Below the pieces are notes generated by a model. It did not search any database. It was given only the letters and a program-made list of their open reading frames with translations, and was not told the origin of the DNA. A DNA stretch of 64,000 nucleotides from Candidatus Woesearchaeota archaeon. GTDB lineage: Archaea; Nanobdellota; Nanobdellia; Woesearchaeales; GW2011-AR9. Position numbers and translations under genes: made by a program. The DNA is taken from assembly GCA_016185625.1 (NCBI GenBank), contig JACPND010000033.1:1496-65495 (forward strand). The letters run 5' to 3'. Positions 18,293 to 49,478 of this stretch are shown one piece after another. How positions within the stretch are numbered: the first letter of the stretch is position 1; each line of letters starts with the position of its first letter.

Positions 18293-18640
18293 TCGAGCAC
18301 TATCCGTTTTGGGATGATAGTAGCGCCAAGACACAAAATGTGGTCGTTGCCACATTGGTGCACAAACGAAGTAGTTTCTTCGTTTCGTGTGTAGCTGAAG
18401 CAGAGCTATAGTACAGGAACAAGTCCGATTTTCTTCTGAAATTCCAATCGTAGCGGAAAATCGGCTTCAGCGACGCAGAATGGGATTTCCGTCCCATTTG
18501 CGCAGAAGGGGAAACTACCCCTTCTTGCGCCGGAGGGAAAACTATCCCTCCGAGCGGAATATCCCTTCGTGCGTTCTCTGTAAGAGACATCCCTCTGTCA
18601 GCTCGATGTTAAAATCGAAGAAGCTCAATTTTAATGATGG
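18293..18640. mobile_element. MITE family B, long variant
   Basis: Starts with TIR GCACTATCCGTTTTGGGATGAT; ~96% identical over ~110 bp (then ~85% for ~40 more) to the reverse complement of 49330..49478; internal self-complementary GGGAAACTACCCCTTCTTGCGCCGGAGGGAAAACTATCCCTCC blocks. Confidence 0.6.
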
Positions 18641-18687
18641 TAGTGCTTCACATTACTGAAGTATTACGATTTCATCTGGCCCATACA

Positions 18688-19446
18688 TCAATACACCTTC
18701 ATGACTTTCCGCAAGGCCACACTAAAGATAATTGATAGAAAGATGTATATTCCCAGCCATCCCGGCTGCCAGCCGAAAATGTCAAACTCTCCCAACGGCC
18801 GTAGTTTGTTGTAATTAATCTTGAGGGAAGTTATGTCCGAATGCTTGTACGCCTCTAGGGGCAATTCATAACTTAAACTTCGGGTAATCAGCACTTTTTT
18901 GCTCTGTTCAATGTTGGCTGTTTTTACGGTGATGGTGTGCTCTCCTTCCGAACTTTTCAGGTTCCACGTCGCCTCGCTATTTATGTTCTGTGTTACCGGA
19001 CTCATCAATTCCGTTCCTTCGTCCGCCACCAGTTCGGCATCACCCGTCAACCCTTTGGCAAACGTCGCGGTGACGCTGTAGGTCTCTCCCGGATAAATCG
19101 GCTCATACGCCAGATGCCCGTTCATCCAGCCAAAAATAAGGATTATCGGCAGGAAAGTGATGAGTGTCGGCTTGAACGAATGCTTCATGTACTCAAAATT
19201 TTTCTTCATGGCTTCTTTCTGGATTTTCATCATCTCGCTAGGATTATCTTTAAGTTCTTTCATGCGCTGCTGATACTCCTTCTGCTCGTCTTTTAGCTGC
19301 TTCATCAATATCTGATTGGTGAAATATTTATAGGCCAGCACGATGATCAATGAAATAAGGAAGGAGACGATAACCGTCCCCCAGAACGGATTCCATTCTA
19401 GCACGGGCAAGAGTACGGGGTTAAAGACCGAATCTAAAAAGGCCAT
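18688..19446 (-). CDS. DUF106-family membrane protein (archaeal YidC/Oxa1-like insertase) with extra extracytoplasmic domain
   Basis: TM-coiled-coil (KQLKDEQKEYQQRMKELKDNPSEMMKIQKEAMKKNFEYMK)-TM architecture typical of DUF106; canonical position downstream of secY/adk. Confidence 0.65.
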   Translation of the reverse strand: MAFLDSVFNPVLLPVLEWNPFWGTVIVSFLISLIIVLAYKYFTNQILMKQLKDEQKEYQQRMKELKDNPSEMMKIQKEAMKKNFEYMKHSFKPTLITFLPIILIFGWMNGHLAYEPIYPGETYSVTATFAKGLTGDAELVADEGTELMSPVTQNINSEATWNLKSSEGEHTITVKTANIEQSKKVLITRSLSYELPLEAYKHSDITSLKINYNKLRPLGEFDIFGWQPGWLGIYIFLSIIFSVALRKVMKVY

Positions 19447-19486
19447 ATTTGAATGTTTTTTTACGAGGATTTAAAAACGTTGTGGA

Positions 19487-20644
19487 TTAAAGTAGAATAT
19501 TCGTAGCGCAACGTGGACCAAAACCTTCATCTAAGAGTGCTCGTGCTTTTACTGTAAGAATTGAACTGTTAATTATTCGTTCCATGCTCTCTCTTGTTTT
19601 TGACGCGTCCTCTGTCATCAAAATTCTGTGGTCGGGCAGTACCAAAAAATTTGCGGGACAAGCGTTGGTTTCTTCTTTTGGGATTTTAACTAAAGTAATG
19701 CCGTATCTCTTTTCTATTGTCTTAAAAATTTCCCTATTAGCATGGTAAAAAGCAGGGTCTACAACTGCCATAGTTTCATTGGCAGATAGATTTAAACCGC
19801 CGACATGATAATCGATGTGCCCGAGAGTATCATTCAAATCTTCTGCCCAAGAAAAACCTTTAAGGAGTGGATTTGATCCACGGTAGCGTACTGTTCTTTC
19901 TTGTCCGATTGGCGATACAAAATAAACAGGGGTGCCATCCCATTCAAAATCGTTTGTTTTTAATCCCAGTCTTTCTTGAAGTTTGGTTGAAGCAAGAATG
20001 AATTGACCAAAATCTACCCAACAGCCTCCCTCTCCCCAGGGACTGGAATAAATACTTTTCCCGGCAAGATAATCCTCACCATGGTTGAGAAATTGTACAA
20101 AAAAGTTTGGTAGAAACCATGGCCCATCTGTTCGTAATTGTTCTAAAATCTTCTGTTTTAATGGTTCGGATGTACCTGGTTTGTAGGCGGCATCGAGAAC
20201 AAAAGATCGACCTTTGAATGGCCCAGAGTGAAAATAGAGAGAATTCTGATGGACAGAGAAGTCGTCTCTCGGGCTCCAGCTTCTTCCAAATCCTCCTTGG
20301 GGGTAATGAGATATATAAAAAAACGGAATCTCTTCTTCGGAGCATATCTCGTACATCTCCCAAGTACAATTACGAAACTTGTTTGTTCCTTCTGATTTGA
20401 GAATTGCATCTAGAGAATCAGTAGTTTCCTCATAAAGTCCAACCCTTACGTAGTATCCCTCGGTTTTTAGTTTTCGAGCAATCTTTAGAATTTCTGCGTT
20501 ATTTTGACCACACCACCTAACTACGCCATAGTCTAGATAAACATCACTAAAAGATGGCAGAAACACTATTGGTCGTCTATAAAAGCCAGAAACGGTCGTA
20601 TCAGTGGTATACTCACTTGGTCCATTGGCCTTGATCTGATTCAT
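19487..20644 (-). CDS. agmatine deiminase / Porphyromonas-type peptidylarginine deiminase-like protein (guanidino-group-modifying enzyme fold)
   Basis: C-terminal half has GHIDYHVGG, NFLVLPDHRIL and GFGPRCATNIL (C-terminal catalytic-Cys block), resembling AguA TNGHVDD / NFLI / GGGNIHCITQQ. Confidence 0.4.
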   Translation of the reverse strand: MNQIKANGPSEYTTDTTVSGFYRRPIVFLPSFSDVYLDYGVVRWCGQNNAEILKIARKLKTEGYYVRVGLYEETTDSLDAILKSEGTNKFRNCTWEMYEICSEEEIPFFYISHYPQGGFGRSWSPRDDFSVHQNSLYFHSGPFKGRSFVLDAAYKPGTSEPLKQKILEQLRTDGPWFLPNFFVQFLNHGEDYLAGKSIYSSPWGEGGCWVDFGQFILASTKLQERLGLKTNDFEWDGTPVYFVSPIGQERTVRYRGSNPLLKGFSWAEDLNDTLGHIDYHVGGLNLSANETMAVVDPAFYHANREIFKTIEKRYGITLVKIPKEETNACPANFLVLPDHRILMTEDASKTRESMERIINSSILTVKARALLDEGFGPRCATNILL

Positions 20645-20706
20645 GAAATACGTATTTAGTGCCTTATTTATAAATATTTTGTTATGTTACTATCCTTAAG
20701 AAGTAC

Positions 20707-22095
20707 CTATTCCATAAACTTCTTCATCGCCGGATGCATGTCCATCATGTGCTGCTTGGCAATCTCTTCATACAATTTGTAGACAATCATGACCGCCAAT
20801 AAAATGCCCGTTCCCTGAGAGAGGGCGCCAGACAGATCCGCTACCGCAGCAAGCAGTCCAATCGATGCTCCGCCGACAATGGTGAGGGGCCAGATGTACC
20901 GCTTTAAGATATGTTCTAATACCCGTTCATCTCTTCGGAAGCCGGGAATCTGCAGCCCACTATTTAAAATCTGTTTCGCCTGCGAGCGGGCGTCCATATT
21001 TGCGGTCTGCACCCAAAAGATGCTGAAGACGACAGCTCCGGCCATCATCAGTATAATGTAGGCTGCTGCTTGTCCCAGCTGCGACAGGCTAAAGCTTCCC
21101 TTAATGATATTCTGCACTAAATCAGGCGGATTGATCCAGTACACTAAGCCGCTGATGGGCGCATTCCCCGAGAACGTTCCAAAGAGCGGATAGCCCCAGC
21201 TTTCTAACAATCGCCCAAACAGCTGTATATTCGCCAGCAAGGCTGCGACTAAAATGACCGGAATGTTTGACGTATAAAAAAAGTTCAGCGGCCAGCGGAT
21301 GCCGTATCCCCGAACTCTGCCAAAAGAGAGAGGGATTTCTACTTTCATCGCCTGCCCGAACACGCAGACCGCAAATACTGCTAGGGTCGCAATCACAGCA
21401 GCTAACTGCAAGCCGGCGGTGGTCAAGTCGCCGACAGCTAAAGATTGAAATAACGCCGGTATGGCGCCAGAGGCAATTTCCGGATTCGTGGGAGAGGGTA
21501 AAAAATTAAACGCCCGAATGAAGATCTGCTGGGCTACGCCGGCGGCAATAAACAGCGAAATACCCGAGCCAAAGCCCCATTTTGAAACCACTTCATCCAT
21601 GAACATGATTAATAATCCACCGAGAATCAGCTGAAAGATTAACACCAGCTCTAATTCGAAAAACGCCGGAGTGCCCGCCAGCTGCGACGAGGGAGCCAGT
21701 CCGCCCATCAGGACATAGACCGCAGCTTCAAAGATGATAAAAAAGACCGAGAGTAATTTCTGCACTCCCTGAAATTTTTTCCTTCCTTCCGGTGTTGCGG
21801 TATCAAACTTGACCATCCCCGTTCCCACCAACAATTGCAGGACGATGGACGAGGTTACCAAAGGCCCTATCCCTAAGCTGATGATGGAACCAAATGATGC
21901 TCCTAAAATGATGGATAAAAATTCAAATTGCTGCAGGGCGTTTTCCCCCAGACCAAACAAAGGCACCAATCCCAACACGAAAAAAAGCACCAACGTGATC
22001 AGCGTCCATTTCAACTTTTCCTTGAAAGGCAGCTTTTTCTGCTGCGGGCCCCGTACTTCCGGGAAATGACCAATGAGATTGTCGAGAAAGGACAT
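20707..22095 (-). CDS. secY: preprotein translocase subunit SecY
   Basis: 10-TM SecY/Sec61alpha with conserved plug and TM blocks. Confidence 0.95.
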   Translation of the reverse strand: MSFLDNLIGHFPEVRGPQQKKLPFKEKLKWTLITLVLFFVLGLVPLFGLGENALQQFEFLSIILGASFGSIISLGIGPLVTSSIVLQLLVGTGMVKFDTATPEGRKKFQGVQKLLSVFFIIFEAAVYVLMGGLAPSSQLAGTPAFFELELVLIFQLILGGLLIMFMDEVVSKWGFGSGISLFIAAGVAQQIFIRAFNFLPSPTNPEIASGAIPALFQSLAVGDLTTAGLQLAAVIATLAVFAVCVFGQAMKVEIPLSFGRVRGYGIRWPLNFFYTSNIPVILVAALLANIQLFGRLLESWGYPLFGTFSGNAPISGLVYWINPPDLVQNIIKGSFSLSQLGQAAAYIILMMAGAVVFSIFWVQTANMDARSQAKQILNSGLQIPGFRRDERVLEHILKRYIWPLTIVGGASIGLLAAVADLSGALSQGTGILLAVMIVYKLYEEIAKQHMMDMHPAMKKFME

Positions 22096-22137
22096 GATCA
22101 GGCAATAATGACCTCACATTTATGTGATTTGTGCAAC

Positions 22138-22572
22138 TTATGCAATAACGACTTCACCGCCAGCCTCTTCCAATTTTTGCTTGGCCTTTTCACTACAATA
22201 CTGACAACTGATTTTCCATCTGCCCGGTGTTCCTGAACCCAGTAGTTTCTGATAGCCCAAGGTTGCCAGGTCAATAACCACTCGGTCTTCCTCTTTGGCA
22301 ATCTTCTTCTCTGCGAGCAACTGGGTAATCTTTTTGGGAGTAAAATAATCAAAATTGATGCTTTCTATTCTTGCTGTCACCGATTTGCTGGTGAATCCAT
22401 GCCGTCCCAGCTGCAAGGGCATGCCGGCTTTCTTCTGTCCGGCTCTCTTCCCTGTTCCAGCATTACCTCGTCCGCCACGGCTACCAGCGCCCCTCCGCTT
22501 TTTCCGGGCGCCATGGCCGTGATTACTTCGGCCGCGGTATCGTCCTGATTTCTTTCGTTTGTTGACCACCAT
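22138..22572 (-). CDS. rpl15: ribosomal protein L15 (uL15)
   Basis: Gly/Arg-rich N-terminus GRSNHGHGARKKRRGAGSRGGRGNAG typical uL15. Confidence 0.9.
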   Translation of the reverse strand: MVVNKRKKSGRYRGRSNHGHGARKKRRGAGSRGGRGNAGTGKRAGQKKAGMPLQLGRHGFTSKSVTARIESINFDYFTPKKITQLLAEKKIAKEEDRVVIDLATLGYQKLLGSGTPGRWKISCQYCSEKAKQKLEEAGGEVVIA

Positions 22573-22573
22573 G

Positions 22574-23194
22574 TTAATTCACTCCTCCAAACAGTGGAGA
22601 CAGCTTAGTCAGAAAAAGAGGAGCCAGCAGGAACCACACGATAGTAATTATAATCAATGAAATAATTGTAGGGATGACATACATTAAAATAGCTTTGGTT
22701 CTGCTAATGCTGTGAACCTTTTCTGTTCCGAGTACCAGCAATATAAACGACCAGATCCAAGCTGCAAAGCTAACCAAAGGAATCCATCCTAAGATAAGGG
22801 TAGGGGTTCTGGCATATACCACTAATTCAAAAGTCTTGGCATACTTGTTTTTTCCCCTGAATATGAGAATCCATGCGTGAACTATTCCTGCCATGGCAAA
22901 AATAAGACCCAATCCTAGGATGTAGGTCCAGATAGAGTTAAAAAAAACTTTACTCACACTAAATTTTGTCATTGCGGCCGAAATTATCGGACCAAAAACA
23001 GGCATTGCCAACAAAGAAGGTGCAATCAGAAAAAAAAGAATCAAGCTGATGATAGCAGACATTACTGTCGCAAAAAGAGAAAGTGCTGCGAAATAACCAA
23101 AAGCGAAATCAAGATGATTATCACCTTTCCCGACGCGTTCAAAGAAAGAAGCTGGTTCCGTAAGTACTTTCTGTATGACTTTGAAGATATTCAT
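22574..23194 (-). CDS. Yip1-like multi-pass membrane protein inserted in r-protein operon
   Basis: 5 TM helices, Yip1-domain-like topology; no r-protein homology. Confidence 0.45.
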   Translation of the reverse strand: MNIFKVIQKVLTEPASFFERVGKGDNHLDFAFGYFAALSLFATVMSAIISLILFFLIAPSLLAMPVFGPIISAAMTKFSVSKVFFNSIWTYILGLGLIFAMAGIVHAWILIFRGKNKYAKTFELVVYARTPTLILGWIPLVSFAAWIWSFILLVLGTEKVHSISRTKAILMYVIPTIISLIIITIVWFLLAPLFLTKLSPLFGGVN

Positions 23195-23195
23195 G

Positions 23196-23618
23196 TTACA
23201 GCATCCTCTTGATTAGATCATCCATCTTCTCCTTCCGATATCCCAAGGCGCCGCCGGCAACAAAAGCCATCTTAATCCCCTTGCGGCCAAATCCTTTGCG
23301 AGGTGGATTTAATCTGAAATAGGGCTTATATTTCTTACCTTTATGTTCCAGTACAGCATATGAATATTTTTTCTTGGCATCCGTTGTTCTTGACAAAAAC
23401 GGTTCTCCCCGGACTTTCACCAGCTCTTCAAACATCTCCTCGGAAATTTCTCCCCAGGTAACCATATCTTTTACTTTTTGAATCATCCCACGATAGGCTG
23501 GCGTATCAGGCACTATCACGCAGAAATTTTTCCGCCCAAGACGCAGTGTATGCAGCGTATCCTTGACTGGCTGCGTCAGGCCGACTGCTCCACGCACTAA
23601 AACTATCGCGAGTTTCAT
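23196..23618 (-). CDS. rpl30: ribosomal protein L30 (uL30)
   Basis: MKLAIVLVRGAVGLTQPVKDTLHTLRLGRKNFCVIV. Confidence 0.9.
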   Translation of the reverse strand: MKLAIVLVRGAVGLTQPVKDTLHTLRLGRKNFCVIVPDTPAYRGMIQKVKDMVTWGEISEEMFEELVKVRGEPFLSRTTDAKKKYSYAVLEHKGKKYKPYFRLNPPRKGFGRKGIKMAFVAGGALGYRKEKMDDLIKRML

Positions 23619-24373
23619 AAAGTGATCCTTCCTTCCACGATGCCCAGCCGATCAATGTCATCGAGCTTGATTTTTACACGAGAAAGCTGTTTCAACGCAT
23701 CCATTAAAGCCATGATAAGATTCAATTTTGTTCCGGTCTGTCCATCCGTTTTGCTCCAGACATCTTTGATGCCCGCTAAAGCCAGAATCTTGGCGCATTC
23801 TTTCTCGACACACAACCCCTTCCCTTTCGGTGCTGGAATCAGTTCCACCTCTGTCGAGCCGCATTTCCCTCTCACGGCAAAAGGAATGGAATGCGGTTGC
23901 TTGCAGCTGCATTGCCAGCTGCCGCATCCCCGTTTGATGCGAATAAGATGGACGCGGGCATTTCGCCGGGATTTGTCACGTGAGGGCACTGTTTCCTTGC
24001 TTTTGCCCGTGGCCAGACCAACATATCCGTTTTTATTGCCTACGACACAGCAGGTCATGAATTTGATTTTATTCCCTTCTTCCGTCTTTTTCTGCGTCTG
24101 CCTGAAGATCCGGCGCTGACCGCCTCCAAATTTTCCCTTGGCTTGCCCAATCAGCAATAGATCCTCCTGTAAATCAGGAACCAACGCCGTGGTAATTTCC
24201 TGTTCCATGATGCGCTCGTGGCGGTTGAAAATATCATCAATATCCTTAATCGTGCCATCCTTCACCAGCAGGCCTAGTCTCGTCCGTGGTTTCCAGAGTG
24301 TCTGGACTTCCGGAGCTTCCTCTATGGTTTCAAGGATGGGCTTGGGTACTTCAATTTCTTCTGTGTTTACCAT
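23615..24373 (-). CDS. rps5: ribosomal protein S5 (uS5)
   Basis: dsRBD-like plus S5 C-terminal domain; GKFGGGQRR...CCVVGNKNGYVGLATGKSKE. Confidence 0.9.
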   Translation of the reverse strand: MVNTEEIEVPKPILETIEEAPEVQTLWKPRTRLGLLVKDGTIKDIDDIFNRHERIMEQEITTALVPDLQEDLLLIGQAKGKFGGGQRRIFRQTQKKTEEGNKIKFMTCCVVGNKNGYVGLATGKSKETVPSRDKSRRNARVHLIRIKRGCGSWQCSCKQPHSIPFAVRGKCGSTEVELIPAPKGKGLCVEKECAKILALAGIKDVWSKTDGQTGTKLNLIMALMDALKQLSRVKIKLDDIDRLGIVEGRITL

Positions 24374-24452
24374 GGTATTTTTTCTCTGTTTACTTTGTTG
24401 GGTCTTTGGTTGATTTTTTGTTATTTTTTTTAATTTTTTTGTGGATTTTTTA

Positions 24453-25001: not shown

Positions 25002-25035
25002 GGTTTTATTTTTTGATGTTTTATCTTTTGAGATC

Positions 25036-26665: not shown

Positions 26666-26696
26666 GTGTAATCATCTGCAATGCCTTTAGTAACCT

Positions 26697-27322: not shown

Positions 27323-27323
27323 C

Positions 27324-36839: not shown

Positions 36840-37170
36840 ATCCTAAGATCGAGCTCTCTCAATAAATACCTCGAGCCGACAAGAGGGTTGTCTGTTGCTG
36901 ACAAGCAACTGTTACCGTTAGGTAACTCACGAACGCTAGTGACTTGACACGAACGGAGCATAGCGGAGTGACTAGACTCACGGAAAACGCACGAAGGGAT
37001 ATTCCGCCCGGAGGGATAGTTCACTGAGTGGGATAGTTTTCCCACTGGTGCGCCAAAGGGAAACCTATCCCTTCTTGCGTCAGCTCTCGACCTATACTTC
37101 GAAAGCGAGAAGAGGGTGGTGCTTCACTTCAGAAAGCCAAAGTATTACAAGATTCGTTTGAGAATTACTT
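36840..37170. repeat. mosaic copy of MITE family B long variant plus repeat-D block
   Basis: Contains GGGAAACCTATCCCTTCTTGCGTCAGC...GTGCTTCACTTCAGAAAGCC (as at 6880-7050), a reverse-complement of the 18515-18590 block, and GTAACTCACGAACG.TAGTGACTTG (rc of repeat D). Confidence 0.5.
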
Positions 37171-37260: not shown

Positions 37261-37884
37261 ATGAATAAACGAAAATCTTTTGTTACATTTCTTCTTCTGT
37301 TATCTCTATTTTTATTATCCTGTATTCCTGAAAAATCCATCCAAAAAAAAACTATCGTCACCGATACTAATCAGTCATATGGTGAGGGTTCAGAAGAGGA
37401 ATATTATACAGATTTAGCCATGGTAGAAAGAAATCAAACACTCTGCACTAAGATTTTAAAGGAGAGTTCTAGAGATGCTTGTGTTAGCCGTGTGGCTATT
37501 GCGTTAGAGAGCACTTCTATTTGTCAGCAAGTGAATGATGTGTTTGTAAAAAACGATTGCGTCCTCGCAGCCAGTGCTAATTTACTCTGTATGAAAAAGC
37601 AGGAACAAGAAGAAAAAGACCTATGCTATATTGGCGCAGGGAGAGTTCGAAAAGATCTTTCAAGCTGCAATCGAATTGTAAATAACGACTATAAAGATTC
37701 GTGTATAGCTGTGGTGGCACGAGAAACTCAAAACATTCGTTTATGTGCAGAAATTAACACTAAAGAAAATAGTGATTGGTGCTATTTAGTGTTAGCGGAC
37801 GACACTCAAAATATTTCACTCTGTCAAAAAATCGTTGATATAGACCTTCGCCGCAGATGTTTAGGAATGCAAGAAATTTCTTGA
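37261..37884 (+). CDS. secreted/lipoprotein with tandem Cys-containing repeats
   Basis: Signal peptide plus lipobox-like LLSC; reiterated motif (S/N)(I/L)C..I....(D/N)xC(V/I/Y)...A roughly 8 times. Confidence 0.45.
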   Translation: MNKRKSFVTFLLLLSLFLLSCIPEKSIQKKTIVTDTNQSYGEGSEEEYYTDLAMVERNQTLCTKILKESSRDACVSRVAIALESTSICQQVNDVFVKNDCVLAASANLLCMKKQEQEEKDLCYIGAGRVRKDLSSCNRIVNNDYKDSCIAVVARETQNIRLCAEINTKENSDWCYLVLADDTQNISLCQKIVDIDLRRRCLGMQEIS

Positions 37885-38962: not shown

Positions 38963-39871
38963 ATGAAATATTACTTGACCACGCTCTTCGGCTGCCAGAT
39001 TCTGGATGAGAAACTGCAGATCATCGAAACCATCCCTCTTTCCGATTGGAGCAAGCGCGAGCAGGCAGAAGAGAAAGCCCGGAAAAAAGCCAGCCCGCTT
39101 CCTCCAGAAAAAATTCCAGAAGCTTTGGCCTTATTCAAAAATAAAAAGTATTTCCGAGACTTTTACCAGAAGAATCTGGAACTGACCAAAAAAGCGATCA
39201 AAAATGCAATCGCCGAAGATCAGTTGATTATCCAGGCCAGCGCCAATATGAATGAATTGGATAAAGTAGCGAATCTTCTCAGCAAGCGCCTGCAGGAATG
39301 GTACAGCTTATACTTCCCGGAACTGTTGGAAAAAATCAATTCGCCGGAAGGATATGCCAAACTGGTGACGGGAAAAACCAAAGCGCAATCACTTCAAGAG
39401 CTGGGATTGACAGAAACGATGGGCGCTGATCTTGATAAAATCCATGTGGATGAAATATTGCGGTTGGCTGAGCAGATAACGCAGCTCTATCATCTCCGCC
39501 GGCATCACGAAGAGTATTTGCAAAGGGTCATGCTAAAATACTGCCCTAATCTGCTGGAATTAGCCGGCGTGAGCATCGGCGCAGGATTGATCGAGTTAGG
39601 GCGAAGCTTGAAGCGCTTGGCGCTGCTGCCGGCATCAACTATCCAATTATTGGGAGCGGAGAAAGCGCTCTTTCGTCATATCACGACCGGCGCAAGAAGC
39701 CCCAAACATGGGATAATTTTTGCCCATCTTTTGGTGCAGAAAGCCAAAAACAAAGGGCGCGTGGCGAGAATATTGGCGGATAAATTGTCGTTGTGCGCGC
39801 GGCTGGATTATTTTAAAGGAGAGTTCAAGGCGAAGGAGTACAGGAAGGAATTGGAAGGGAAATTGAAATAG
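38963..39871 (+). CDS. nop5: box C/D snoRNP protein Nop5 (Nop56/58), compact form
   Basis: NOP domain (AGVSIGAGLIELGRSLKRLALLPASTIQLLGAEKALFRHITTGARSPKHGIIFAH). Confidence 0.8.
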   Translation: MKYYLTTLFGCQILDEKLQIIETIPLSDWSKREQAEEKARKKASPLPPEKIPEALALFKNKKYFRDFYQKNLELTKKAIKNAIAEDQLIIQASANMNELDKVANLLSKRLQEWYSLYFPELLEKINSPEGYAKLVTGKTKAQSLQELGLTETMGADLDKIHVDEILRLAEQITQLYHLRRHHEEYLQRVMLKYCPNLLELAGVSIGAGLIELGRSLKRLALLPASTIQLLGAEKALFRHITTGARSPKHGIIFAHLLVQKAKNKGRVARILADKLSLCARLDYFKGEFKAKEYRKELEGKLK

Positions 39872-39971: not shown

Positions 39972-40898
39972 GTGTACATGACTAAGCTACTATCATTAAC
40001 TGCCTCCAAACTGCTTCGGGTTCTGCTGGAAAACCCTTTAAAAGAATTTAAAGAGATTGAACTCATCAACACTGCAAAAATTGGCAAAGGGGCAGGAGCA
40101 GAACACATCAAAACTCTGATTGGCGAAGGAATAGTGCTAGAGCAAAGAGTGGGAAAAGCCAGAATAGTCTCTCTCAACTTAAAATCTCTCCTCTTCTTTT
40201 TTCTTAAAAATATGCTTGACCGGCAGAAAGTAAACCTTCTTTCAAAATCAAGATTGGCAGCAGTGTCGATGTTCAAACGAGAAGTGCAACAACATACGTC
40301 CTTGCTCATTCTGTTTGGCTCTACCATCGCTGGAACAGCAACGGCTCACAGCGATATTGATATATTAGTAATAAGCAAAAGTCACTCTATAATCCACGCT
40401 GCCCGTACCAAAACAGAAGGCGCATTTGGTGAAAGATTAAATCTCCATGTTTATCGTTTGCAAGATATACGGTCGAAAATTACAGACGATCCCTTTCTCA
40501 GAAATGTCCTACTACAAGGGGTAATTTTAATGGGATACGATGCCGCCACAAACCTCTTTCACCTATTAGCAAAAAACGAAAGAAAAAATTTCCAGCGAAT
40601 AGATTATTTTAAGGAAAGAATAGCCGCAGCCAAACGCAATTATGTCCGTAAAGATTATGGCGCTGCTCAGGAAATAATAAGTCATTTACAAGAACAGCTG
40701 ATCTTCTATATATTGGCTGACCAAAAAATACCGTATCAAAGTAAAAAAGATGCTGTACAAGCAATACAAAAACTACCAGAAGGAGAATTGTTGAGTAAGG
40801 TAAAGAGAGCATCTTTAAATGAAAAGATTGATAAATTGGAGGAGTTCATAAGAGAAATGTTGATAAGAATAACCCTAGAGGAAGAATATGGATTCTAA
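39972..40898 (+). CDS. minimal nucleotidyltransferase (MNT, Pol-beta superfamily) with N-terminal wHTH and C-terminal helical extension
   Basis: LILFGSTIAGTATAHSDIDILVIS (GS..x..DxD NTase motif); 4-bp overlap with downstream HEPN gene. Confidence 0.75.
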   Translation: MYMTKLLSLTASKLLRVLLENPLKEFKEIELINTAKIGKGAGAEHIKTLIGEGIVLEQRVGKARIVSLNLKSLLFFFLKNMLDRQKVNLLSKSRLAAVSMFKREVQQHTSLLILFGSTIAGTATAHSDIDILVISKSHSIIHAARTKTEGAFGERLNLHVYRLQDIRSKITDDPFLRNVLLQGVILMGYDAATNLFHLLAKNERKNFQRIDYFKERIAAAKRNYVRKDYGAAQEIISHLQEQLIFYILADQKIPYQSKKDAVQAIQKLPEGELLSKVKRASLNEKIDKLEEFIREMLIRITLEEEYGF

Positions 40899-41271
40899 GC
40901 AGCAAATAAAGGAAGATTTAGAAAGGGCTGAAAAAGCATTGCAATCTGCAGAAAGGAATTTTGATGAGAAAGATATGTTTACTTCTGCCAATAGGCTTTT
41001 TGTGGCTTGTGAAAGCGCTATTTATGCTCTATTAAAATTAAAATACGGCTCTATTTCTATGAGCCGGGAACGGATTTTAACTAGACTAAAAGATGTCGAC
41101 GCGCACATGAAAGAAATTTATGACCTAAGTTATGATTTGCGGGTACAGGCGGATTATGGAAGGCAATCAAAAATAAAGCCTTTGACAGAGCAGAATGTGA
41201 AATTTATTTTAAATGAAGTCACTCAAATTATCCAAAAGGTTAAAGATATCATTGAAACATCAATGCCATGA
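40888..41271 (+). CDS. HEPN-domain protein (putative RNase toxin partner of MNT)
   Basis: All-helical 127 aa; R-x6-H motif RLKDVDAH in the expected C-terminal third. Confidence 0.65.
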   Translation: MDSKQQIKEDLERAEKALQSAERNFDEKDMFTSANRLFVACESAIYALLKLKYGSISMSRERILTRLKDVDAHMKEIYDLSYDLRVQADYGRQSKIKPLTEQNVKFILNEVTQIIQKVKDIIETSMP

Positions 41272-41939
41272 TCAAAATAACCACCCACAAGATCTTTGAA
41301 CTCTACACCGATGGAAAGAGATTGTACACCAAAAGCATCCTGCCAGGGAAAGCGCATTTTGAAGAGCGCTTGATTCATCAGGGCATGGATGAATACCGTG
41401 AATTCGATCCGCGGCGCAGCAAACTGGCCGCAACGATCATGAAAGGCTGTACCAATGCCGGAATCCGGAAGAACGATGTGGTATTATATCTGGGCGTGTC
41501 ACATGGATATACGGCATCATTTGTTTCAGACATCGTGGGAAAAGATGGATTGATATTCGGCATCGATCCGGCGTTCCGCGTGATGCGCGATTTAATCTTT
41601 CTTTCTGCCCATCGCCAGAACCTTGTGCCGCTCTTGGCAGACGCTAACCATCCGGAAGAGTATGCCGGAAGAGTCTGTCAGGCAGATGTTGTCTATCAGG
41701 ATATTTCCCAGCGCAATCAGGCAGATATTTTCATCCGTAACTGTACGATGTTCCTGAAGAAAGGCGGTTATGGATTATTGGCCGTCAAAGCGAGAAGCAT
41801 TGACATCAGGCGCAAGCCGCGACAGATATTTGAAGAAGTGCGGAAGATGCTGGAAAAGGAATTCACCGTGATTGATTTTCGGATTTTAGAACCGTATGAG
41901 AAGGATCATTGCATGATTATTGTGAAGAAAGGGAATTGA
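41268..41939 (+). CDS. flpA: fibrillarin, rRNA/tRNA 2'-O-methyltransferase
   Basis: LYLGVSHGYTASFVSDIVG (SAM motif I), full fibrillarin collinearity. Confidence 0.9.
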   Translation: MIKITTHKIFELYTDGKRLYTKSILPGKAHFEERLIHQGMDEYREFDPRRSKLAATIMKGCTNAGIRKNDVVLYLGVSHGYTASFVSDIVGKDGLIFGIDPAFRVMRDLIFLSAHRQNLVPLLADANHPEEYAGRVCQADVVYQDISQRNQADIFIRNCTMFLKKGGYGLLAVKARSIDIRRKPRQIFEEVRKMLEKEFTVIDFRILEPYEKDHCMIIVKKGN

Positions 41940-42518: not shown

Positions 42519-42566
42519 ATTCTTTTGCAGTAAACCTTTTTATACTTCATCGTTTTAATCTGATGC

Positions 42567-43087: not shown

Positions 43088-43112
43088 AAAAAACTTACAT
43101 TTGAAAAATCAT

Positions 43113-43346: not shown

Positions 43347-43445
43347 CAGTACTGCGAAAAGTGGCAGATTTATAAGATTTGTGCAGGAGGCGGACCAACT
43401 CTCCCCACCAAAAAGCTTATATAAACAGTTTTATTTATCTCCATC

Positions 43446-44393
43446 ATGAAAAAGAGAGGATTGTTTTTACTGTTAGCGGTAGTTCTTATTCTCCTTGTTT
43501 CCTGCCAGCGCGTGCCGCAAGGACAGCAGCCACTGGAAACCGCCGCCGCATTAAAACTGGTCCAATCTGGCACGCAGGGTGTGGAAATTTTGACGCTCGC
43601 TAATTATCCTCCTGCTTTGGTCTACGATCAAAATGAGTTAGTGACCATCGTCGAAGTCAAAAACAAAGGCAACCATGATCTTACTCAGCAGGACTGTTTC
43701 GTGCAGATAACTGGCTTCGACCCCAACATCATCCGCGGCGGATTTAACATCCCCCGTTCCTGTGCAGAAAATGTCAATATCTTGGAAGGAAAAAATGTCT
43801 ACAATGTCGAAGGGAGCTCCAATCAACTGGAATTCCGTGCTCCGACGGTGAACTTACCGTCCGGCGTGTTTGAATACAATCCGGTATTGAATTTTGTTAC
43901 CTGTTATAATTATCATACTACGGCCAGCCCTTCGGTCTGCGTCGATCCTTTATTTTATCAAGTGACTTCACAGCAAAAGACCTGTCTGCCTCATAATGTG
44001 GGTACGGGCGGCGGCCAGGGCGCTCCGGTGGGTATCAGTTATGTTGGCGTGAACATGGTCGGCAGCAAAGCCATTTTTGAACTGAATGTCGTTAATTATG
44101 GAACGGGACGTGTCCTGAGTCCGTATGCCGGCATCCAGAACTGCGGTGAAGCTTCAGTATCGTATACTGACCTCGATAAAGTAGGATATAAAGTCCAGTT
44201 GAGCGGCGGAAGCCTGATCGACTGCAAGCCGAGAGACGGCTTTGTCCGCTTAGTGAACAACCAGGGAAAGATTGTCTGCCAGTTCAGCATTCCCGGCGCC
44301 TCGGCTTACGAAACGCCTTTGTTAGTTGATTTGGATTACAGCTATATCCAATCATATCAGAAGCCGGTGAAGATTATCAAGACACCGGAGTAA
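43446..44393 (+). CDS. secreted Cys-containing lipoprotein (hypothetical)
   Basis: Signal peptide with LVSC lipobox; ~10 Cys, beta-rich. Confidence 0.45.
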   Translation: MKKRGLFLLLAVVLILLVSCQRVPQGQQPLETAAALKLVQSGTQGVEILTLANYPPALVYDQNELVTIVEVKNKGNHDLTQQDCFVQITGFDPNIIRGGFNIPRSCAENVNILEGKNVYNVEGSSNQLEFRAPTVNLPSGVFEYNPVLNFVTCYNYHTTASPSVCVDPLFYQVTSQQKTCLPHNVGTGGGQGAPVGISYVGVNMVGSKAIFELNVVNYGTGRVLSPYAGIQNCGEASVSYTDLDKVGYKVQLSGGSLIDCKPRDGFVRLVNNQGKIVCQFSIPGASAYETPLLVDLDYSYIQSYQKPVKIIKTPE

Positions 44394-44410
44394 GAGTAAA
44401 TAATGAGACT

Positions 44411-45352
44411 ATGCTCTGGGCAAATCTTCTTTTTTTTGGAATGGCAACGGCCATTTTATTTTTTTCCGGCATTCGACTAGTAAAAAGTTTAGTGGTACTA
44501 TCACGACACTTCCGTGTCCAAGAGTTCACCATTGGATTTATCGTCATGGCCGTGGCTACTTCGCTTCCTGAGCTCTTTGTAGGAATAGCCGCGGCATTTC
44601 AGAAGAATACATCGCTGGCTCTGGGAAACGTGATCGGCTCAAATATTGTTGATCTGACACTCATTGCCGGTATCGGTATTGTGCTGGTGCGTAGTTATCC
44701 CATTAAAACCCAGGAAACCAAGAGAGACGCTTTTTTTATGGTGGGCATGGCTCTGCTTCCTTTAGTCTTAATGTTTATCGGCGGACAAATTTCACGTCTT
44801 GATGGCGCAGTTCTGATAGTTGGTTTCGTAGGGTATATTTATCACCTGCTCCGCCGCCGCCGATATTATCCCAAAAAGTTCGTTTCGCCAGGGAAGAAAC
44901 GTATGGTCTGGCACGCCTTTCTTTCACTTGCCAGCCTGGCCGGGCTCATGCTTGGTGCGCACTATGTTGTTAAGTATGGAACATTTCTGGCTGCTGAATT
45001 TGGCTTCTCTTCACTATTGCTGGGCTTGTTCATGATTGCCCTGGCCACGTCGCTGCCGGAACTGGTGTTTGAGACAACGGCTATTCTCAAAAGACATGCT
45101 GAGTTGGCGCTCGGCGATCTGATTGGTTCGGTGATTGTGAATTCCTCTCTCGTTCTGGGAGTGACGGCATTGATCTACCCTATTTCTGCAGATTATCTGT
45201 TGGCGTTGAGTACGGGGGTGTTTATGCTGCTGGTCTGTTTCGTATTTGCGACGTTTATTGAACTGGGTCAAAAGCTCCACTGGAAGCAGGGAATCACGCT
45301 GATCTTCTTATATATCTTTTTTGTGATTTTGGAACTTTTCATAAAGCCGTGA
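44411..45352 (+). CDS. Na+/Ca2+ exchanger (CaCA/YrbG family)
   Basis: Two alpha-repeats GNVIGSNIVDLTLIAG and GDLIGSVIVNSSLVLG. Confidence 0.85.
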   Translation: MLWANLLFFGMATAILFFSGIRLVKSLVVLSRHFRVQEFTIGFIVMAVATSLPELFVGIAAAFQKNTSLALGNVIGSNIVDLTLIAGIGIVLVRSYPIKTQETKRDAFFMVGMALLPLVLMFIGGQISRLDGAVLIVGFVGYIYHLLRRRRYYPKKFVSPGKKRMVWHAFLSLASLAGLMLGAHYVVKYGTFLAAEFGFSSLLLGLFMIALATSLPELVFETTAILKRHAELALGDLIGSVIVNSSLVLGVTALIYPISADYLLALSTGVFMLLVCFVFATFIELGQKLHWKQGITLIFLYIFFVILELFIKP

Positions 45353-45363
45353 GGTGTTGATTT

Positions 45364-45567
45364 CAATTGATGGTGTGAAGGACTCAGGTATAGTAGCTTA
45401 TTTTCTACTTATTCAGAGCTGAACCGGGTCAAACCTGTGGAAAACCTGCTTTGTTTATTCTCGACGGTTTTCCATTCTGTTCCTGTAAAAAGGCGTAGCA
45501 GGTTTGACAACAATCTGGCCAAGCTCCTCTTTTTCACTTCAGAAAGAGAGTTCTACTACCATCAATT
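45364..45567. mobile_element. palindromic MITE-like element, family C
   Basis: 10-bp TIR AATTGATGGT/ACCATCAATT; nested stems GGTATAGTAG/CTACTACC, GTCAAACCTG/CAGGTTTGAC, TGGAAAACC/GGTTTTCCA. Confidence 0.4.
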
Positions 45568-46157
45568 ATGAACTTTGTAATCCGTATGTTTTGATTATGG
45601 TGATCTTCCAAAACTATTTGCACAGGTGGACAATAAAAGGGGGAACCTTGATGAACAAGAATTCGTAGCTATCGTAAGTTTAATTGTTGGAGCGGACGCT
45701 TCCTATTTATTTCAAAAAGCTGGAGTAATTTAAAACACTTCTGAAATAAGCTGATACGTAACATTTCATGAGAAAATCTTATATAATCCTCTTCAAACTG
45801 GTTCGCTGATGCAAGAAATTCCCTCAGAATACCCCGGACAGTATGTTGCACTCATAGTGATTGTGAATTATTTTCGAACATTTGTGCACTTTCCTATACT
45901 AATAAGCAGATGTGTAGAATAATGTTTGACACATTAGCTATACCAAAGGACATAAATAATTCAAGTCACTTCGTTCGTGAGTTGCCTGATGGCAACTATA
46001 CAAAAGTTATGTCCTTTGTATATAGCAACTGTTAATAATTGTCTAAACACGAGAAATTGGCGTGCAATTTCTGTGCCCAAAAGTGTATCCAAATAAAATG
46101 CTCACCTTTAAGTACATGCCCACAAAAAAGAAGCAGACAGTCACTGGATAACCTATT

Positions 46158-47087
46158 ATGAAAGCCCCTGAAATCGTCGGCATCGAACCGCAGAACTGGT
46201 TCAACAGCAGGCCGCTTACCCTGAAACAGCTTCGCGGAAAAATAGTGCTTTTAGACTTCTGGACCTATTCCTGCATCAATTGCCTGCGGACACTTCCGGC
46301 ATTAAAAGAGATGTGGCGAAAGTACCAGGATAAAGATGTTGTCATTATCGGCATCCATACGCCGGAATTTGAATTTGAGAGAGACCTCAGCAATGTCCGC
46401 AAAGCCGTCAAGAAGCAGGGCTTAGAATATCCGATAGCCAGCGATCCGGAACGATTTAACTGGGATAATTATGGGAATCAATATTGGCCGAGAGCCGCGT
46501 TGATCAGCGCTGACGGGGAAATCATTATGGAGCATGTCGGCGAATCCGGCTACGACGAGATCGAGCAGAAAATTATTGCCGAATTGAAAAAGATGGGAAA
46601 ATTGAACTCAGGAACACCGCTGCACGAAGAAAAACACTATCATCATCCCGAAATCTCACCAGAGATCTATGCCGGCAGTTCCCGCAACGAGGGATTAGGT
46701 TCACGGCAGGTCTGCACGGCCAAAGGCTGTGAGGAATATTACGATCCAGGCAAGCATCGGAGAAATGTGATCTACTTGCAGGGCGACTGGAAGCAGTATG
46801 CAGAATATTTGGAATTTAGGGAAGAGAAAGGGTATATTCTCCTGCCGTATTTTGCCCGGGAAGTGAAGGTCGTTCTTTCGGGAACGGGATTGGCGGAAGT
46901 GTTATGGAACGACAAACCACTCGGCAAATACGCCGGAAAGGACATCGCAATGAAGAACAATAAAAGTTACGTCAAGATTGACGGTTCAGATCTGTATCAT
47001 CTGATTCAAAATGAGGAATTTCAGGAAGGCATAGTGAAGATCATTCCCTTTTCCAGGATGAAAGTGTATGCGTTTACTTTTGGGTGA
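46158..47087 (+). CDS. thioredoxin-fold thiol-disulfide oxidoreductase (TlpA/redoxin-like) with extra C-terminal domain
   Basis: WTYSCINCLRT CxxC active site in redoxin fold; ~150-aa C-terminal domain of unknown function. Confidence 0.7.
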   Translation: MKAPEIVGIEPQNWFNSRPLTLKQLRGKIVLLDFWTYSCINCLRTLPALKEMWRKYQDKDVVIIGIHTPEFEFERDLSNVRKAVKKQGLEYPIASDPERFNWDNYGNQYWPRAALISADGEIIMEHVGESGYDEIEQKIIAELKKMGKLNSGTPLHEEKHYHHPEISPEIYAGSSRNEGLGSRQVCTAKGCEEYYDPGKHRRNVIYLQGDWKQYAEYLEFREEKGYILLPYFAREVKVVLSGTGLAEVLWNDKPLGKYAGKDIAMKNNKSYVKIDGSDLYHLIQNEEFQEGIVKIIPFSRMKVYAFTFG

Positions 47088-47244
47088 GGATGAGGGCGGA
47101 TAAAGTGGGTTATACAACATCTTACTTGCCCCGCTTTTGATGTAAAAATTCTACCAAGTACCCCGTTGTTTAGTGCAGATAATTCCTTCATTTTTTGATT
47201 GCTGCAATGCACTTATAAGTAATTTTTTCGCTTCAGGCGTTAAA

Positions 47245-47346
47245 GTCTTTGCCAAATCCTCTGTGCAGATGCAGATACAGCAGTCGCAGCATGGACAGAC
47301 GCCGCCTTTGCAGCATTGTTCTTTTTTTTCATCTTTTCCATTTTGC
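47245..47346 (-). CDS. possible small peptide (33 aa) downstream of ccdA
   Basis: GGAGGT 7 nt upstream of ATG; MEKMKKKNNAAKAASVHAATAVSASAQRIWQRL; lies in a CTGC-repeat tract. Confidence 0.2.
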
Positions 47347-47356
47347 TTACCTCCAA

Positions 47357-48226
47357 TTATTTTAAAAAAGGGAAAAATATCTTTACAAAAATCTGGTTTC
47401 CTTCAAGGGTTAACAAGGCAATGGCTAAGCCAATAACGATCATCACCACTGCCGCAACCTTTTTGATAATGGGTGCAGCTGCTATGAGATAAGGGGTCAA
47501 GGCATTCTTAAACAACCCGGCAAGGACTGTCAATAAAAACATCAACAGTCCCATCGTGAGCGAAAAGATGAGAAAGGCAGTAATTGCACCGGCAAAGCTG
47601 GCGCTGGCAAACGCATACAGAAGCAATCCCAGCATAATGGGCCCAGTACAGCCGATTGCTGCACCGTTATATAATAAGCCATAGAAAAAAATACTTTTGG
47701 TAAATCCTTTTTCTGCCATCAGGCGATAAATCCATGAAATATTAATGCTCTTCCCCAACAAAGTAAAAACTCCTAAGCTTGCTATTAGTATCCCGGCAAC
47801 AATACGAACACCAAGGATAATGGCAATATCTTGTCGCGGATCTTTGGCAAAGGGAGTAGCAGCTCCCAGCGCCGCAATCGTTACCCCGACGATCATGTTT
47901 ACTACAACGATACCTGTTGCGCCAACCAGTCCCAGATATGCTGATTGCCGGAAGGTTTGTGCTTTGGTCAGTTTTCTTACTCTCCCTCCTGTCAAAAAGT
48001 GCGCAACATATCCCGGCAGCACCGTAAATGCGCACGGACTAAAGAAAGCCGCGAGACCAAAAATAATGCTTAATATTATGAGAGGAAATGCCCCCAGACG
48101 TTCGGGCATCATAACGTTATAGATTGCTCCTAAAAATCCAAAATAGTAACCTAAAAATCCAATGAGCACTACCGCAACCAAGACGTATAAAGAATAAATT
48201 AATAATTTTTTATTTTCTGATCCCAT
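47357..48226 (-). CDS. ccdA: CcdA/DsbD-family thiol-disulfide transporter (cytochrome c biogenesis-type)
   Basis: Multi-pass TM with SPCAFTVLPGY motif. Confidence 0.75.
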   Translation of the reverse strand: MGSENKKLLIYSLYVLVAVVLIGFLGYYFGFLGAIYNVMMPERLGAFPLIILSIIFGLAAFFSPCAFTVLPGYVAHFLTGGRVRKLTKAQTFRQSAYLGLVGATGIVVVNMIVGVTIAALGAATPFAKDPRQDIAIILGVRIVAGILIASLGVFTLLGKSINISWIYRLMAEKGFTKSIFFYGLLYNGAAIGCTGPIMLGLLLYAFASASFAGAITAFLIFSLTMGLLMFLLTVLAGLFKNALTPYLIAAAPIIKKVAAVVMIVIGLAIALLTLEGNQIFVKIFFPFLK

Positions 48227-48659
48227 CTTTCTTCCCTCTTAAATTTAATACCATACCTAATAGTAATCCTAGGAGTGAGATATAATAGACTGGGTTTGAC
48301 ATCATCACAAATATGCCGATATAGATCAGAATTGAGCTAACAATAATCAAGATTAGAGGAAATTTCTGTTGGTGGAATCTGTAGGAAAAATAGGTGCTTA
48401 TGATGCCAACGAGCAATAACACTATTAAAATGGATTCTAAGATTTTTAAGTCAATTCTGGTTAAAAATCCTAAACCGATGAAATTAAGCAATTTTAATGA
48501 AAAATTAACACCATTTGCAGACATTGCTCCCATAGCAACTGCCCCAGTAGCCGCTATTGTCGTGGTCATTATTGCCATACAGCCCAACGACGCGATGGCG
48601 CTGCCGGTGCTGCAACAGGCACAGGCTATTTTTGTCGATAATAATCTATTTTTTGGCAT
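48210..48659 (-). CDS. small membrane protein with CACC motif (MerT-like?)
   Basis: KIACACCSTGSAIASLGCMAIM then 3 TM helices; overlaps ccdA start by 17 bp (operonic). Confidence 0.4.
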   Translation of the reverse strand: MPKNRLLSTKIACACCSTGSAIASLGCMAIMTTTIAATGAVAMGAMSANGVNFSLKLLNFIGLGFLTRIDLKILESILIVLLLVGIISTYFSYRFHQQKFPLILIIVSSILIYIGIFVMMSNPVYYISLLGLLLGMVLNLRGKKDGIRK

Positions 48660-48871
48660 TTTTGCTTTGCACCGAACAATAATAATCTCTTCCAGCAAGG
48701 ACGTCAGCTTTATATATTATACCTACTTTCTATTGTATAGTATAAGAACTATTTAAATCCAGAGGTTTGAAAATGGAAAGTAACAATACTTACAAAATAG
48801 AAAGTAAAGCCCTAAAAAATCAAAGATCTTTGGGGCACAGAAAATTAGAAGAATTTTCTCGTGACTGCAAG

Positions 48872-49195
48872 ATGCGTTCAGCTACAGGATATTGTCCTCG
48901 CCCTCTTGAAACCGCTTCTGCATTTTTGAGCAAAAAATGGACAATTTCAATGGTAATAACCATCGGCAATTTTAAGAAATTGAGATTCAATGATATTGAA
49001 CGAAGACTTGAGGACATAACTGCAAAAACACTTACGGACAGATTAAAAGAGTTAGAAAAAGAGCAAATTGTTATGAGAAAGGTCTATTCAGAAATTCCTC
49101 CAAGAGTGGAGTATTCTTTAACTAAAAGAGGAAGAAGATTAATGAAAGCACTAATCCCGCTTATTCACTGGGCTGAAAATGCATCATCTCGATAA
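48872..49195 (+). CDS. HxlR-family transcriptional regulator
   Basis: CPRPLETASAFLSKKWTISMV...RFNDIERRL..ITAKTLTDRLKELEKEQIVMRKVYSEIPPRVEYSLTKRG; divergent from the ccdA operon. Confidence 0.75.
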   Translation: MRSATGYCPRPLETASAFLSKKWTISMVITIGNFKKLRFNDIERRLEDITAKTLTDRLKELEKEQIVMRKVYSEIPPRVEYSLTKRGRRLMKALIPLIHWAENASSR

Positions 49196-49227
49196 TTTAC
49201 TTTCACATCATCTTTTTATCTCATTCT

Positions 49228-49478
49228 TTGCTTAAAAATTCAACTAATCAACGCAAAGATTCGTACACCCCACGAATCTACAGACCTAGCCGCAGCGTAG
49301 TCCGGAGAGGTTCAATCAAAATCCTCTATAGAAGAAAATCGGATTTGTTCCCACACTATGGCTCTGCTTCAGCTACACACGAAACGAAGAAACTACTTTG
49401 TTTGTGCAACAATGTGGCAACGACCACATTTTGTGTCTTGGCGCTACTATCACTCACAAAACGGATAGTGCCGTTTTG
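49228..49478. mobile_element. MITE family B, long variant (inverted relative to the 18293 copy)
   Basis: Ends ATCACTCACAAAACGGATAGTGCC; ~96% identical over ~110 bp to the reverse complement of 18293-18410. Confidence 0.6.

Follow-up and report, generated by a model that had tools for sequence, protein, structure and literature searches.

A near-identical inverted repeat pair at two ribosomal protein gene promoters in a Candidatus Woesearchaeota genome probably belongs to a promoter-targeting MITE family

Prokaryotic MITEs (miniature inverted-repeat transposable elements) represent non-autonomous derivatives of DDE insertion sequences (ISs), such as the Correia elements of Neisseria and the SM MITEs of Sulfolobus. 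The ISH6 family of ISs is found in archaeal hosts, is about 1.45 kb long and has GGC ends, 8-bp target-site duplications and one transposase open reading frame (ORF). Ty3 is a retroelement with a retroviral-type integrase. In bacteria, insertion 13-17 bp upstream of sigma-A promoters is described for three groups of Mutator-like elements, namely the TnGBS integrative and conjugative elements, the ISLre2 family and the ISKra4 group (p-MULT 3/4; Guerillot et al. 2014; PMC3942029). Their transposases are described as having a signature motif that lies between domains N1 and N2 (PMC3942029). An analogy to Ty3 and TFIIIB has already been drawn for TnGBS (PMC3942029). ISH6 is reported to prefer the AT-rich target AANATNTT, which is itself duplicated (PMC3942029). 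Archaeal MITEs are well known. A census found a Woesearchaea genome among the most MITE-dense archaea (PMC11602168). Here we analyzed a pair of inverted repeats, copies A and B, in a 64,000-nt stretch of a Candidatus Woesearchaeota genome (GCA_016185625.1, contig JACPND010000033.1, positions 1,496 to 65,495; hereafter the window). Our analysis indicates that A and B are probably one subfamily of a promoter-targeting MITE in Candidatus Woesearchaeota (DPANN), a non-coding derivative of a Mutator/IS256-like IS. In open-access papers and preprints we found no account of an archaeal element whose offset from the transcription factor B (TFB) recognition element (BRE) and TATA box is fixed.

Copy A is located at 18296-18442 on the forward strand and copy B, of the same subfamily, at 49331-49472 on the reverse strand. 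A global alignment of 18297-18436 with the reverse complement of 49331-49472 gives 132 identities in 140 positions. A repeat search returned arms of 123 nt, 18315-18437 and 49330-49452, which are 94% complementary. The inverted near-identical repeat described in the original prediction is therefore present. Its account of four differences in about 110 bp, followed by about 85% identity, roughly agrees with the identities of 92/95 in the central section (18318-18412) and 20/24 in the distal section. The longest exact run between the copies is 43 nt, and another is 38 nt. Because the pair has E = 1e-56 in a self-BLAST of the window and greatly exceeds every other repeat of the 64 kb in length, it is not a chance similarity. 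Distally, the similarity vanishes beyond 18436 and 49331. At the other end it falls to 17/23 over the promoter region 18274-18296, and this residual similarity past the A/B terminus is the likeness of two BRE/TATA promoters.

Both copies adjoin promoters of ribosomal protein genes. The promoter of rps8e (Ribosomal_S8e, PF01201; 17871-18251, reverse strand) adjoins copy A at 18274-18287. It is composed of a BRE-like GAAACC (18282-18287) and the TATA box TTTAAAAA (18274-18281), which is 14 nt from A's end. The promoter of rps19e (Ribosomal_S19e, PF01090; 49517-49936, forward strand) adjoins copy B at 49473-49494. Here the target GTTTTGAG (49473-49480) is followed by a BRE-like CAAAAC (49481-49486) and the TATA box TTTATAAA (49487-49494). 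The start codons, at 18251 in rps8e and 49517 in rps19e, are each located 22 nt past the TATA box, a leaderless geometry, and, counting outward from the end of the element, the ATG is reached at the 45th base at both genes. The same element end, terminating at 18296 in A and at 49472 in B, faces the promoter in both cases. Since rps8e and rps19e lie on opposite strands, A and B are mutually inverted.

The terminal repeat GGCACTATCCGTTTTGTGAGTGAT is common to five elements in the window. Searching with the first 23 nt of copy B gave two window matches in addition to A and B, and a short-query BLAST added the fifth element. In copy A, the terminal repeat of the right inverted repeat (IRR) type is located at 18296-18319 (AGCACTATCCGTTTTG-GGATGAT) and matches the family consensus GGCACTATCCGTTTTGTGAGTGAT at 21/24 positions plus a 1-nt gap. 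Its counterpart in B, at 49449-49472, matches at 24/24. Copy A contains two internal hairpins and ends in a non-canonical distal end; the distal end of B is undefined. The putative 8-bp target-site duplication of A is formed by GCCAATCG at 18288-18295 and TCCAATCG at 18443-18450. These flanks agree at 7/8 positions, and by our estimate a match this good would arise by chance within +/-10 nt of the homology end in about 0.8% of cases.

Two of the other elements are complete. Element C is a 159-nt MITE at 2635-2793 on the reverse strand (2627-2801 with its duplication) with a terminal inverted repeat at either end, GGCGCTATCTGTTTTGTGAGTGAT and its inverted partner ATCACTCACTTTTTGGATAGTGCC. Its duplication GATGATTC, at 2794-2801 and 2627-2634, is perfect (8/8). 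Element D is a 222-nt MITE at 5178-5399 on the forward strand (5170-5407 with its duplication). It has both terminal repeats and a 7/8 duplication, AAAGATTG and AAGGATTG. Copies A and B share with D the terminus and the two internal hairpins and are without its central arm. Element E, at 6841-7043 on the forward strand, has an IRR-type terminal repeat at 6841-6863 (GGCACTACGGTTTTGTGAGTGAT), and its distal end is a hairpin of a second terminus type (7010-7040). C and E share the geometry of A and B. In C, the TATA box TATATATA is 14 nt from the IRR end, upstream of an ORF at 2853 on the forward strand. In E, the TATA-like GTTAAAAAC is about 14-15 nt from the end and serves an ORF at 6425-6796 on the reverse strand, with its ATG about 45 nt from the end. 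Distally, A and B contain an 11-nt stretch, CTGAAGCAGAG, which is also present in the end region of a second element family, and A and B look mosaic because of it. The A/B internal hairpin module has no relatives in the fetched loci.

The family extends beyond the window. Genome and metagenome collections were each scanned once with CTRTCYGTTTTGTGAGTGAT, which returned 14 and 29 loci, respectively. Of these, two bacterial genome matches were set aside, as were about eight from metagenomes without a GGCAC terminus. The family terminus is present at about 30 archaeal loci of other genomes and metagenomes, comprising 12 archaeal genome loci and about 22 of the 29 metagenome loci. The loci retained come from metagenome-assembled genomes (MAGs) labelled Candidatus Woesearchaeota or 'uncultured Methanosarcinales'. 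The S8e protein of the window is 100% identical to a Candidatus Woesearchaeota protein at NCBI, with the next relatives at 66-68%. It was not found in viral contigs. These loci contain 22 distinct full elements with both termini, 151-404 nt long, of which nine have 8/8 duplications and five have 7/8. The target-site duplication is 8 bp long across the family, including C (8/8), D (7/8) and A (7/8). The duplicated 8-mer itself varies between copies, for example GGTGGTGG and CTCTTATC. Overall, the elements are 147-404 nt long, non-coding and located in intergenic DNA only. Five copies are found in 64 kb, and in one MAG copies are found on five contigs. Both strands of the 22 elements fold about equally well, with up to -162 kcal/mol for 299 nt. 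A strand-specific structured RNA, considered when four window elements first seemed more stable on one strand, was rejected across the 22 elements. These 22 are foldback DNA elements and qualify as MITEs.

Some of the scan matches were rejected. L004 (Pseudobacillus) and L008/L047 (Planctopirus) were discarded because we considered them chance or unrelated matches, and L026, L034, L036, L037, L042, L046 and L048, metagenome matches that lack the GGCAC terminus, were treated as chance. The bacterial L008/L047 (Planctopirus hydrillae) matched the 20-nt pattern with GTGAGTGATAAC and GTTATCACTCAC about 300 nt apart. It is perhaps a chance match, or perhaps an unrelated inverted-repeat element that shares the inner box. 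Among the archaeal loci, L005 (CAYIBV010000074.1) encodes proteins 78-80% identical to those of the window genes at 58329-59911. It is the closest relative seen and carries a family MITE. Several of the element-bearing MAGs (L002-L015) are titled 'uncultured Methanosarcinales archaeon'. This label may be unreliable, because the S8e protein of CAYJXA01 clusters with Woesearchaeota proteins.

The promoter geometry of the window elements is a property of the family. We read outward from either terminal repeat in 48 flanks, 45 of them distinct. The flanks are composed of the 8-bp duplication (positions 1-8), a purine-rich, BRE-like GAAAAG (9-14) and TTTATATA (15-22), with the profile T/T/T/A/T/A/T/A at positions 15-22. 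Base counts reach 33/48 for A at position 12, 26-28/48 for T at positions 15-17 and 30/48 for A at position 22. A TATA-like box at 14-17 nt is found in 18/45 flanks, compared to 3.7% of random positions in the same loci (P ~9e-15). An outward ORF is present in 21/30 flanks with a TATA-like or W-rich box, compared to 5/16 of the other flanks. These ORFs mostly start 44-46 nt from the element, that is 22-24 nt past the TATA box, the leaderless archaeal geometry. The element does not carry the TATA box, because the box falls outside the target-site duplication. The promoter-proximal end is the IRR in 16 flanks and the left inverted repeat (IRL) in 14, and no orientation bias is evident. In L022 and L039, different elements are stacked on one 8-bp target.

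Such a distribution might also arise by selection alone, if insertion is random and copies survive only just upstream of the BRE in a compact genome. Intergenic regions in DPANN are short, insertions in genes or promoters would be lost, and the restriction of the elements to intergenic DNA fits this explanation. Selection, however, would set only a minimum distance and predicts a tail beyond it. The TATA-like 8-mers start exactly at position 15 in 15/30 cases (binomial P ~2e-16; ~8e-15 when corrected for 38 positions), with six other starts within +/-2 nt of this position and only five across positions 18-38. This peak at a single position, which has no tail, fits the prediction of a target choice. 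Host intergenic regions also have room for other positions, for example the 436 nt between the DUF106 gene and rps8e, and the stacking of different elements at the same 8-bp target in L039 and L022 also weighs against selection alone. We consider selection as the sole cause unlikely. These data showed that integration of family members takes place at a fixed position with respect to archaeal promoters.

A second terminus type, GTAATACTTCA...TGAAGTATTAC, is found in the window at 565-592, 7010-7040, 18644-18667, 37118-37148 and 52698-52730, and at 108-403 in L039. The L039 copy is a 296-nt element with a perfect 8-bp duplication, GATAATTC, and it abuts a MITE of the first family on the same target. 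The copies ending at 592 and 52698 are located 14 nt from the TATA boxes of a gene at 653 (forward strand) and of rps3ae at 52651 (reverse strand), respectively. This terminus type seems to define another MITE family that follows the same target rule.

A candidate autonomous element was found outside the window, in which no autonomous copy is present. The metagenomic locus L045 contains a deletion derivative of 585 bp that retains both family termini and a remnant ORF of 153 aa, whose homologues are fragments ended by contig edges or nested insertions. A profile search of 1.84 billion representatives found only 169 relatives of the transposase. The full-length proteins have 416-451 aa, with a Cys-rich N-terminal region and the motifs YDEQHPKKGR ... 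IIITDCDRRYP ... HQKCLLHLNK. In L059, L060 and L061, transposase genes encoding 431-436 aa are located between GGCAC(T/A)(A/G)T... termini. The L061 contig is exactly one IS of 1569 bp with GGCACAGTATCA... inverted termini, the IS in L060 is 1615 bp long, and the left end in L059 is GGCACTGTATAGAAAGTGAGTGAT. The full-length IS in L059 is also located 14 nt from a TATA box. Because L045 and L059/L060/L061 join a transposase ORF with matching termini, the MITEs are assigned a cognate Mutator-like IS of about 1.57-1.6 kb with a predicted DDE transposase of about 435 aa. Both the MITEs and the cognate IS make 8-bp target-site duplications.

The transposase is only weakly linked to a named IS family. 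Two members, P0162 (33.4 bits) and P0152 (22.8 bits), exceed the Pfam Transposase_mut gathering threshold of 21 bits, and other members match IS66 (DDE_Tnp_IS66), MULE or IS240 near or below the Pfam threshold. Similarity to ISLre2 is marginal (E = 4e-5, one member). The transposase fragments have no Pfam or NCBIfam matches, and a tblastn search against plasmids returned Methanosphaera hypothetical proteins only. The transposase gene copies in L050 (442-2399) and L051 are interrupted; in L050, the break is followed by a second IS, which has a DDE_Tnp_1 ORF. Such nested insertions are therefore the reason why most database proteins of the transposase family are fragments. The solitary terminus in L009, beside a host methyltransferase-like gene, was rejected as an autonomous copy.

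The Woesearchaeota family can now be compared with the described systems. Similar to other prokaryotic MITEs, its members are small, non-coding, intergenic foldback elements in many copies, with 8-bp duplications and terminal repeats that match those of an IS. Unlike them, the family is placed with single-nucleotide precision relative to the archaeal BRE/TATA, and A and B have one canonical terminus. It shares with TnGBS, ISLre2 and ISKra4 a predicted DDE transposase whose profile similarity to the Mutator superfamily is weak here, a fixed offset (here 14 bp to the TATA box) and a downstream promoter that is left intact. In contrast to these elements, the host is an archaeon and the target is BRE/TATA instead of the sigma-A -35/-10. 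In addition, TnGBS, ISLre2 and ISKra4 keep the IRR beside the promoter, whereas the Woesearchaeota family uses both ends (16 and 14 flanks). The family looks like an archaeal counterpart of these promoter-targeting elements.

ISH6 and IS256 (p-MULT 2 and 1, respectively) also make 8-bp duplications and have GGC ends and one transposase ORF, and the matches of the Woesearchaeota transposases to IS256/Transposase_mut are weak and repeated. The cognate IS differs from ISH6 in its length of about 1.57-1.6 kb; this comparison is by ends, duplication and length only, and no NCBIfam family cut-off is reached. The target preference also differs, since in the Woesearchaeota family the duplicated 8-mer is variable and the offset from the TATA box is fixed. 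Ty3 integrates at the start sites of RNA polymerase III via TFIIIB, which contains TBP and Brf1. The Woesearchaeota family is similar to it in keeping a precise distance from an initiation complex of the TBP/TFB type, with contact to TBP/TFB being hypothesized here. We class the A and B repeats as MITE copies, a known kind of element, and the target choice of the family as a new archaeal variant of promoter-targeted transposition.

How the target may be chosen is suggested by the same geometry. We infer that the transposase picks its target by reading the promoter. It may recognize either DNA that is bent and occupied by TBP/TFB, in the manner of Ty3 integrase with TFIIIB and of the proposal made for TnGBS at sigma-A promoters, or the BRE/TATA sequence directly. 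That TATA sequences vary at a fixed position favors recognition of the bound or bent promoter over strict sequence recognition. We tentatively propose that the archaeal Mutator-like IS and its MITEs may dock onto the TBP/TFB-bound promoter and cut the DNA at the BRE's upstream edge, with an 8-bp stagger located 6-14 bp upstream of the TATA box, which we regard as possible rather than probable. Highly occupied promoters, such as those of ribosomal protein genes, would then be preferred, and successive elements would stack at one site. A and B would represent a degenerate mosaic subfamily in which one terminal repeat is canonical, the hairpins resemble those of D and the distal end is non-canonical. 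The 94% identity of the two copies may reflect a recent common origin, via transposition or conversion between copies, and the 31-kb block would merely be what separates two targeted promoters.

If this docking takes place, it would be the first case of an archaeal transposon targeting through the transcription-initiation complex, as a mechanistic parallel of eukaryotic Ty3 with TFIIIB and of bacterial TnGBS at sigma-A promoters, and the elements would provide a natural marker of active promoters in uncultivated DPANN genomes. Targeting through TBP/TFB would link transposon target choice across the three domains, and the transposase, TBP/TFB and promoter DNA would constitute a tractable system. 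The elements mark promoters in genomes of unculturable organisms and account for assembly breaks at ribosomal protein gene promoters in DPANN genomes.

Several observations weigh against the promoter-targeting MITE assignment of A and B and the proposed mechanism. A and B each have one canonical terminal repeat, and the other is represented only by the remnant ATAGTG. Homology between the copies extends about 16-22 nt beyond this remnant and ends at ...TTCTTCT, 6 nt before the putative duplication of A. For B, no target-site duplication with at least 6/8 matches is found near the end of homology. The second copy may thus have been produced by a variant transposition, a one-ended event or gene conversion. 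Insertion of A and B at the two promoters is putative and was read from the geometry. Under a strict criterion, 17/25 elements have a TATA box at the canonical spacing at either end, and about a third do not. NCBIfam IS256 scores at most 44 bits, compared to a cut-off of 150, and IS66 is also far below its cut-off. Purifying selection in the compact genome must contribute to the sites at which copies survive. Finally, the role of TBP/TFB in targeting is pure inference.

The original prediction regarded A and B as substrates for homologous inversion of the segment between them, which contains genes for SecY, a purF-like GATase (amidotransferase), Nop5 and fibrillarin. Its description of the neighboring genes is confirmed by gene coordinates and domain matches. 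Copy A is located between rps8e and the EMC3_TMCO1/DUF106 gene (18688-19446, reverse strand), and copy B between the HxlR-type regulator gene (48767-49195, forward strand) and rps19e. Recombination is possible in principle, given two inverted copies that agree at 94% over 140 nt and contain exact runs of 43 and 38 nt. A crossover in A/B would keep both promoters intact, an inversion would probably be tolerated, and short-read assemblies cannot resolve the A/B junctions. Two inverted homologous copies around a 31-kb segment are also the arrangement of inversions bracketed by ISs or MITEs. However, this potential is generic to any repeat, and the prediction had missed the MITE family to which the copies belong. 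Unlike in those inversions, no second orientation is observed and the flanking duplication of A is matched. The two flanks of A still agree with each other at 7/8 positions. One crossover with B would have swapped the distal flanks and so separated this pair, which argues against a net inversion since A inserted.

Other data also disfavor an invertible segment. The homology is short for efficient recombination (140 bp, with a longest exact run of 43 nt), and the orientation of the two target promoters fully accounts for the inverted arrangement. Short-read (Logan) contigs of the same organism from four runs (SRR12113383, SRR12113384, SRR12113424 and SRR12113431) end inside A (about 18326), inside B (about 49423) and in a neighboring repeat (about 18535). 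These sequences are therefore repeated in the genome, and the breaks are silent on orientation. No alternative junction is present in any retrievable contig, with the contigs of the same organism ending inside the repeats. GC/AT skew, tried as a marker of inversion, follows gene strand only and is uninformative, giving no separate inversion signal. In the nearest relatives, rps8e (66-68% identical) is found in the context ScpA-LonB-rps8e, and these relatives are too distant to judge gene order. No homologues of DUF106, hxlR or rps19e are present in any fetched locus. An actual inversion between A and B is unsupported, and recombination that leaves the ribosomal/SecY block in both orientations, or inverted in the lineage, is quite unlikely. 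The elements caution against taking such inverted copies for evidence of invertible segments.

The identical position and orientation of the copies at both ribosomal protein genes, with the ATG at the 45th base from the end, could also suggest a shared functional element, either a cis-regulatory site or a small RNA gene, for example in co-regulation of rps8e and rps19e. Copy A folds better than shuffled sequences (z = -3.7). Compared to D, the A and B hairpins have four pairs that are changed on both sides, and these compensatory changes suggest that the hairpins matter to the element. In contrast, B shows no such advantage over shuffles (z = -0.9), and in one of its hairpins a change is left uncompensated. 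The element is located upstream of the TATA box, hence outside the mRNA leader. Rfam has no match at the gathering threshold in the whole window and only chance-level ones around copy A at E up to 10, and ARAGORN found no tRNA or tmRNA. Furthermore, the same terminus is found beside unrelated genes in many genomes, together with target-site duplications, and rps8e of the relatives follows LonB directly, without such an upstream element. A shared function as the explanation for the pair is very unlikely. A misassembly of the MAG caused by the repeats, which would have produced the 31-kb orientation or one of the copies, is highly improbable. The metagenome-derived source and independent short-read contigs that all stop inside the repeats would permit it. 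However, the copies differ at 8/140 positions, each runs on into a unique promoter and a unique distal flank, the junctions on the promoter side of A and B are confirmed by the Logan contigs, and 140 bp are easily bridged by read pairs.

Additional repeats are found in the window. Modules of short GGGAnnnnnTCCC hairpins are shared between 18450-18590 and 36977-37060, in inverted orientation, and between 6914-7040 and 37067-37148. They occupy the rest of the long intergenic regions by A and E and upstream of the gene at 37261. In this genome, the large intergenic gaps look like stacked mosaic repeat elements. A short repeat family, ATTCAAGTCACTTCGTTCGTGAGTTGCCTGATGGCAAC, has 3-4 copies with 68-92% identity, at 45959-45996, 52744-52781, 60472-60509 and about 36917-36950.

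Some gene arrangements in the window are unusual. The nop5 and fibrillarin genes are usually adjacent. Here, a nucleotidyltransferase (NTP_transf_2/Polbeta) gene and a small overlapping ORF (39972-41271) are located between nop5 (38963-39871) and fibrillarin (41268-41939), and may be an inserted pair similar to toxin-antitoxin systems. A 385-aa ORF that has no Pfam match (19487-20644) is located between the SecY and DUF106 genes, a position occupied by adenylate kinase in many archaea. The region 13773-16801, whose genes are also found in L001, contains adjacent ATP-grasp/Citrate_bind and Ligase_CoA/Citrate_synt genes. They are ATP-citrate-lyase-like, which is notable for a small DPANN genome.

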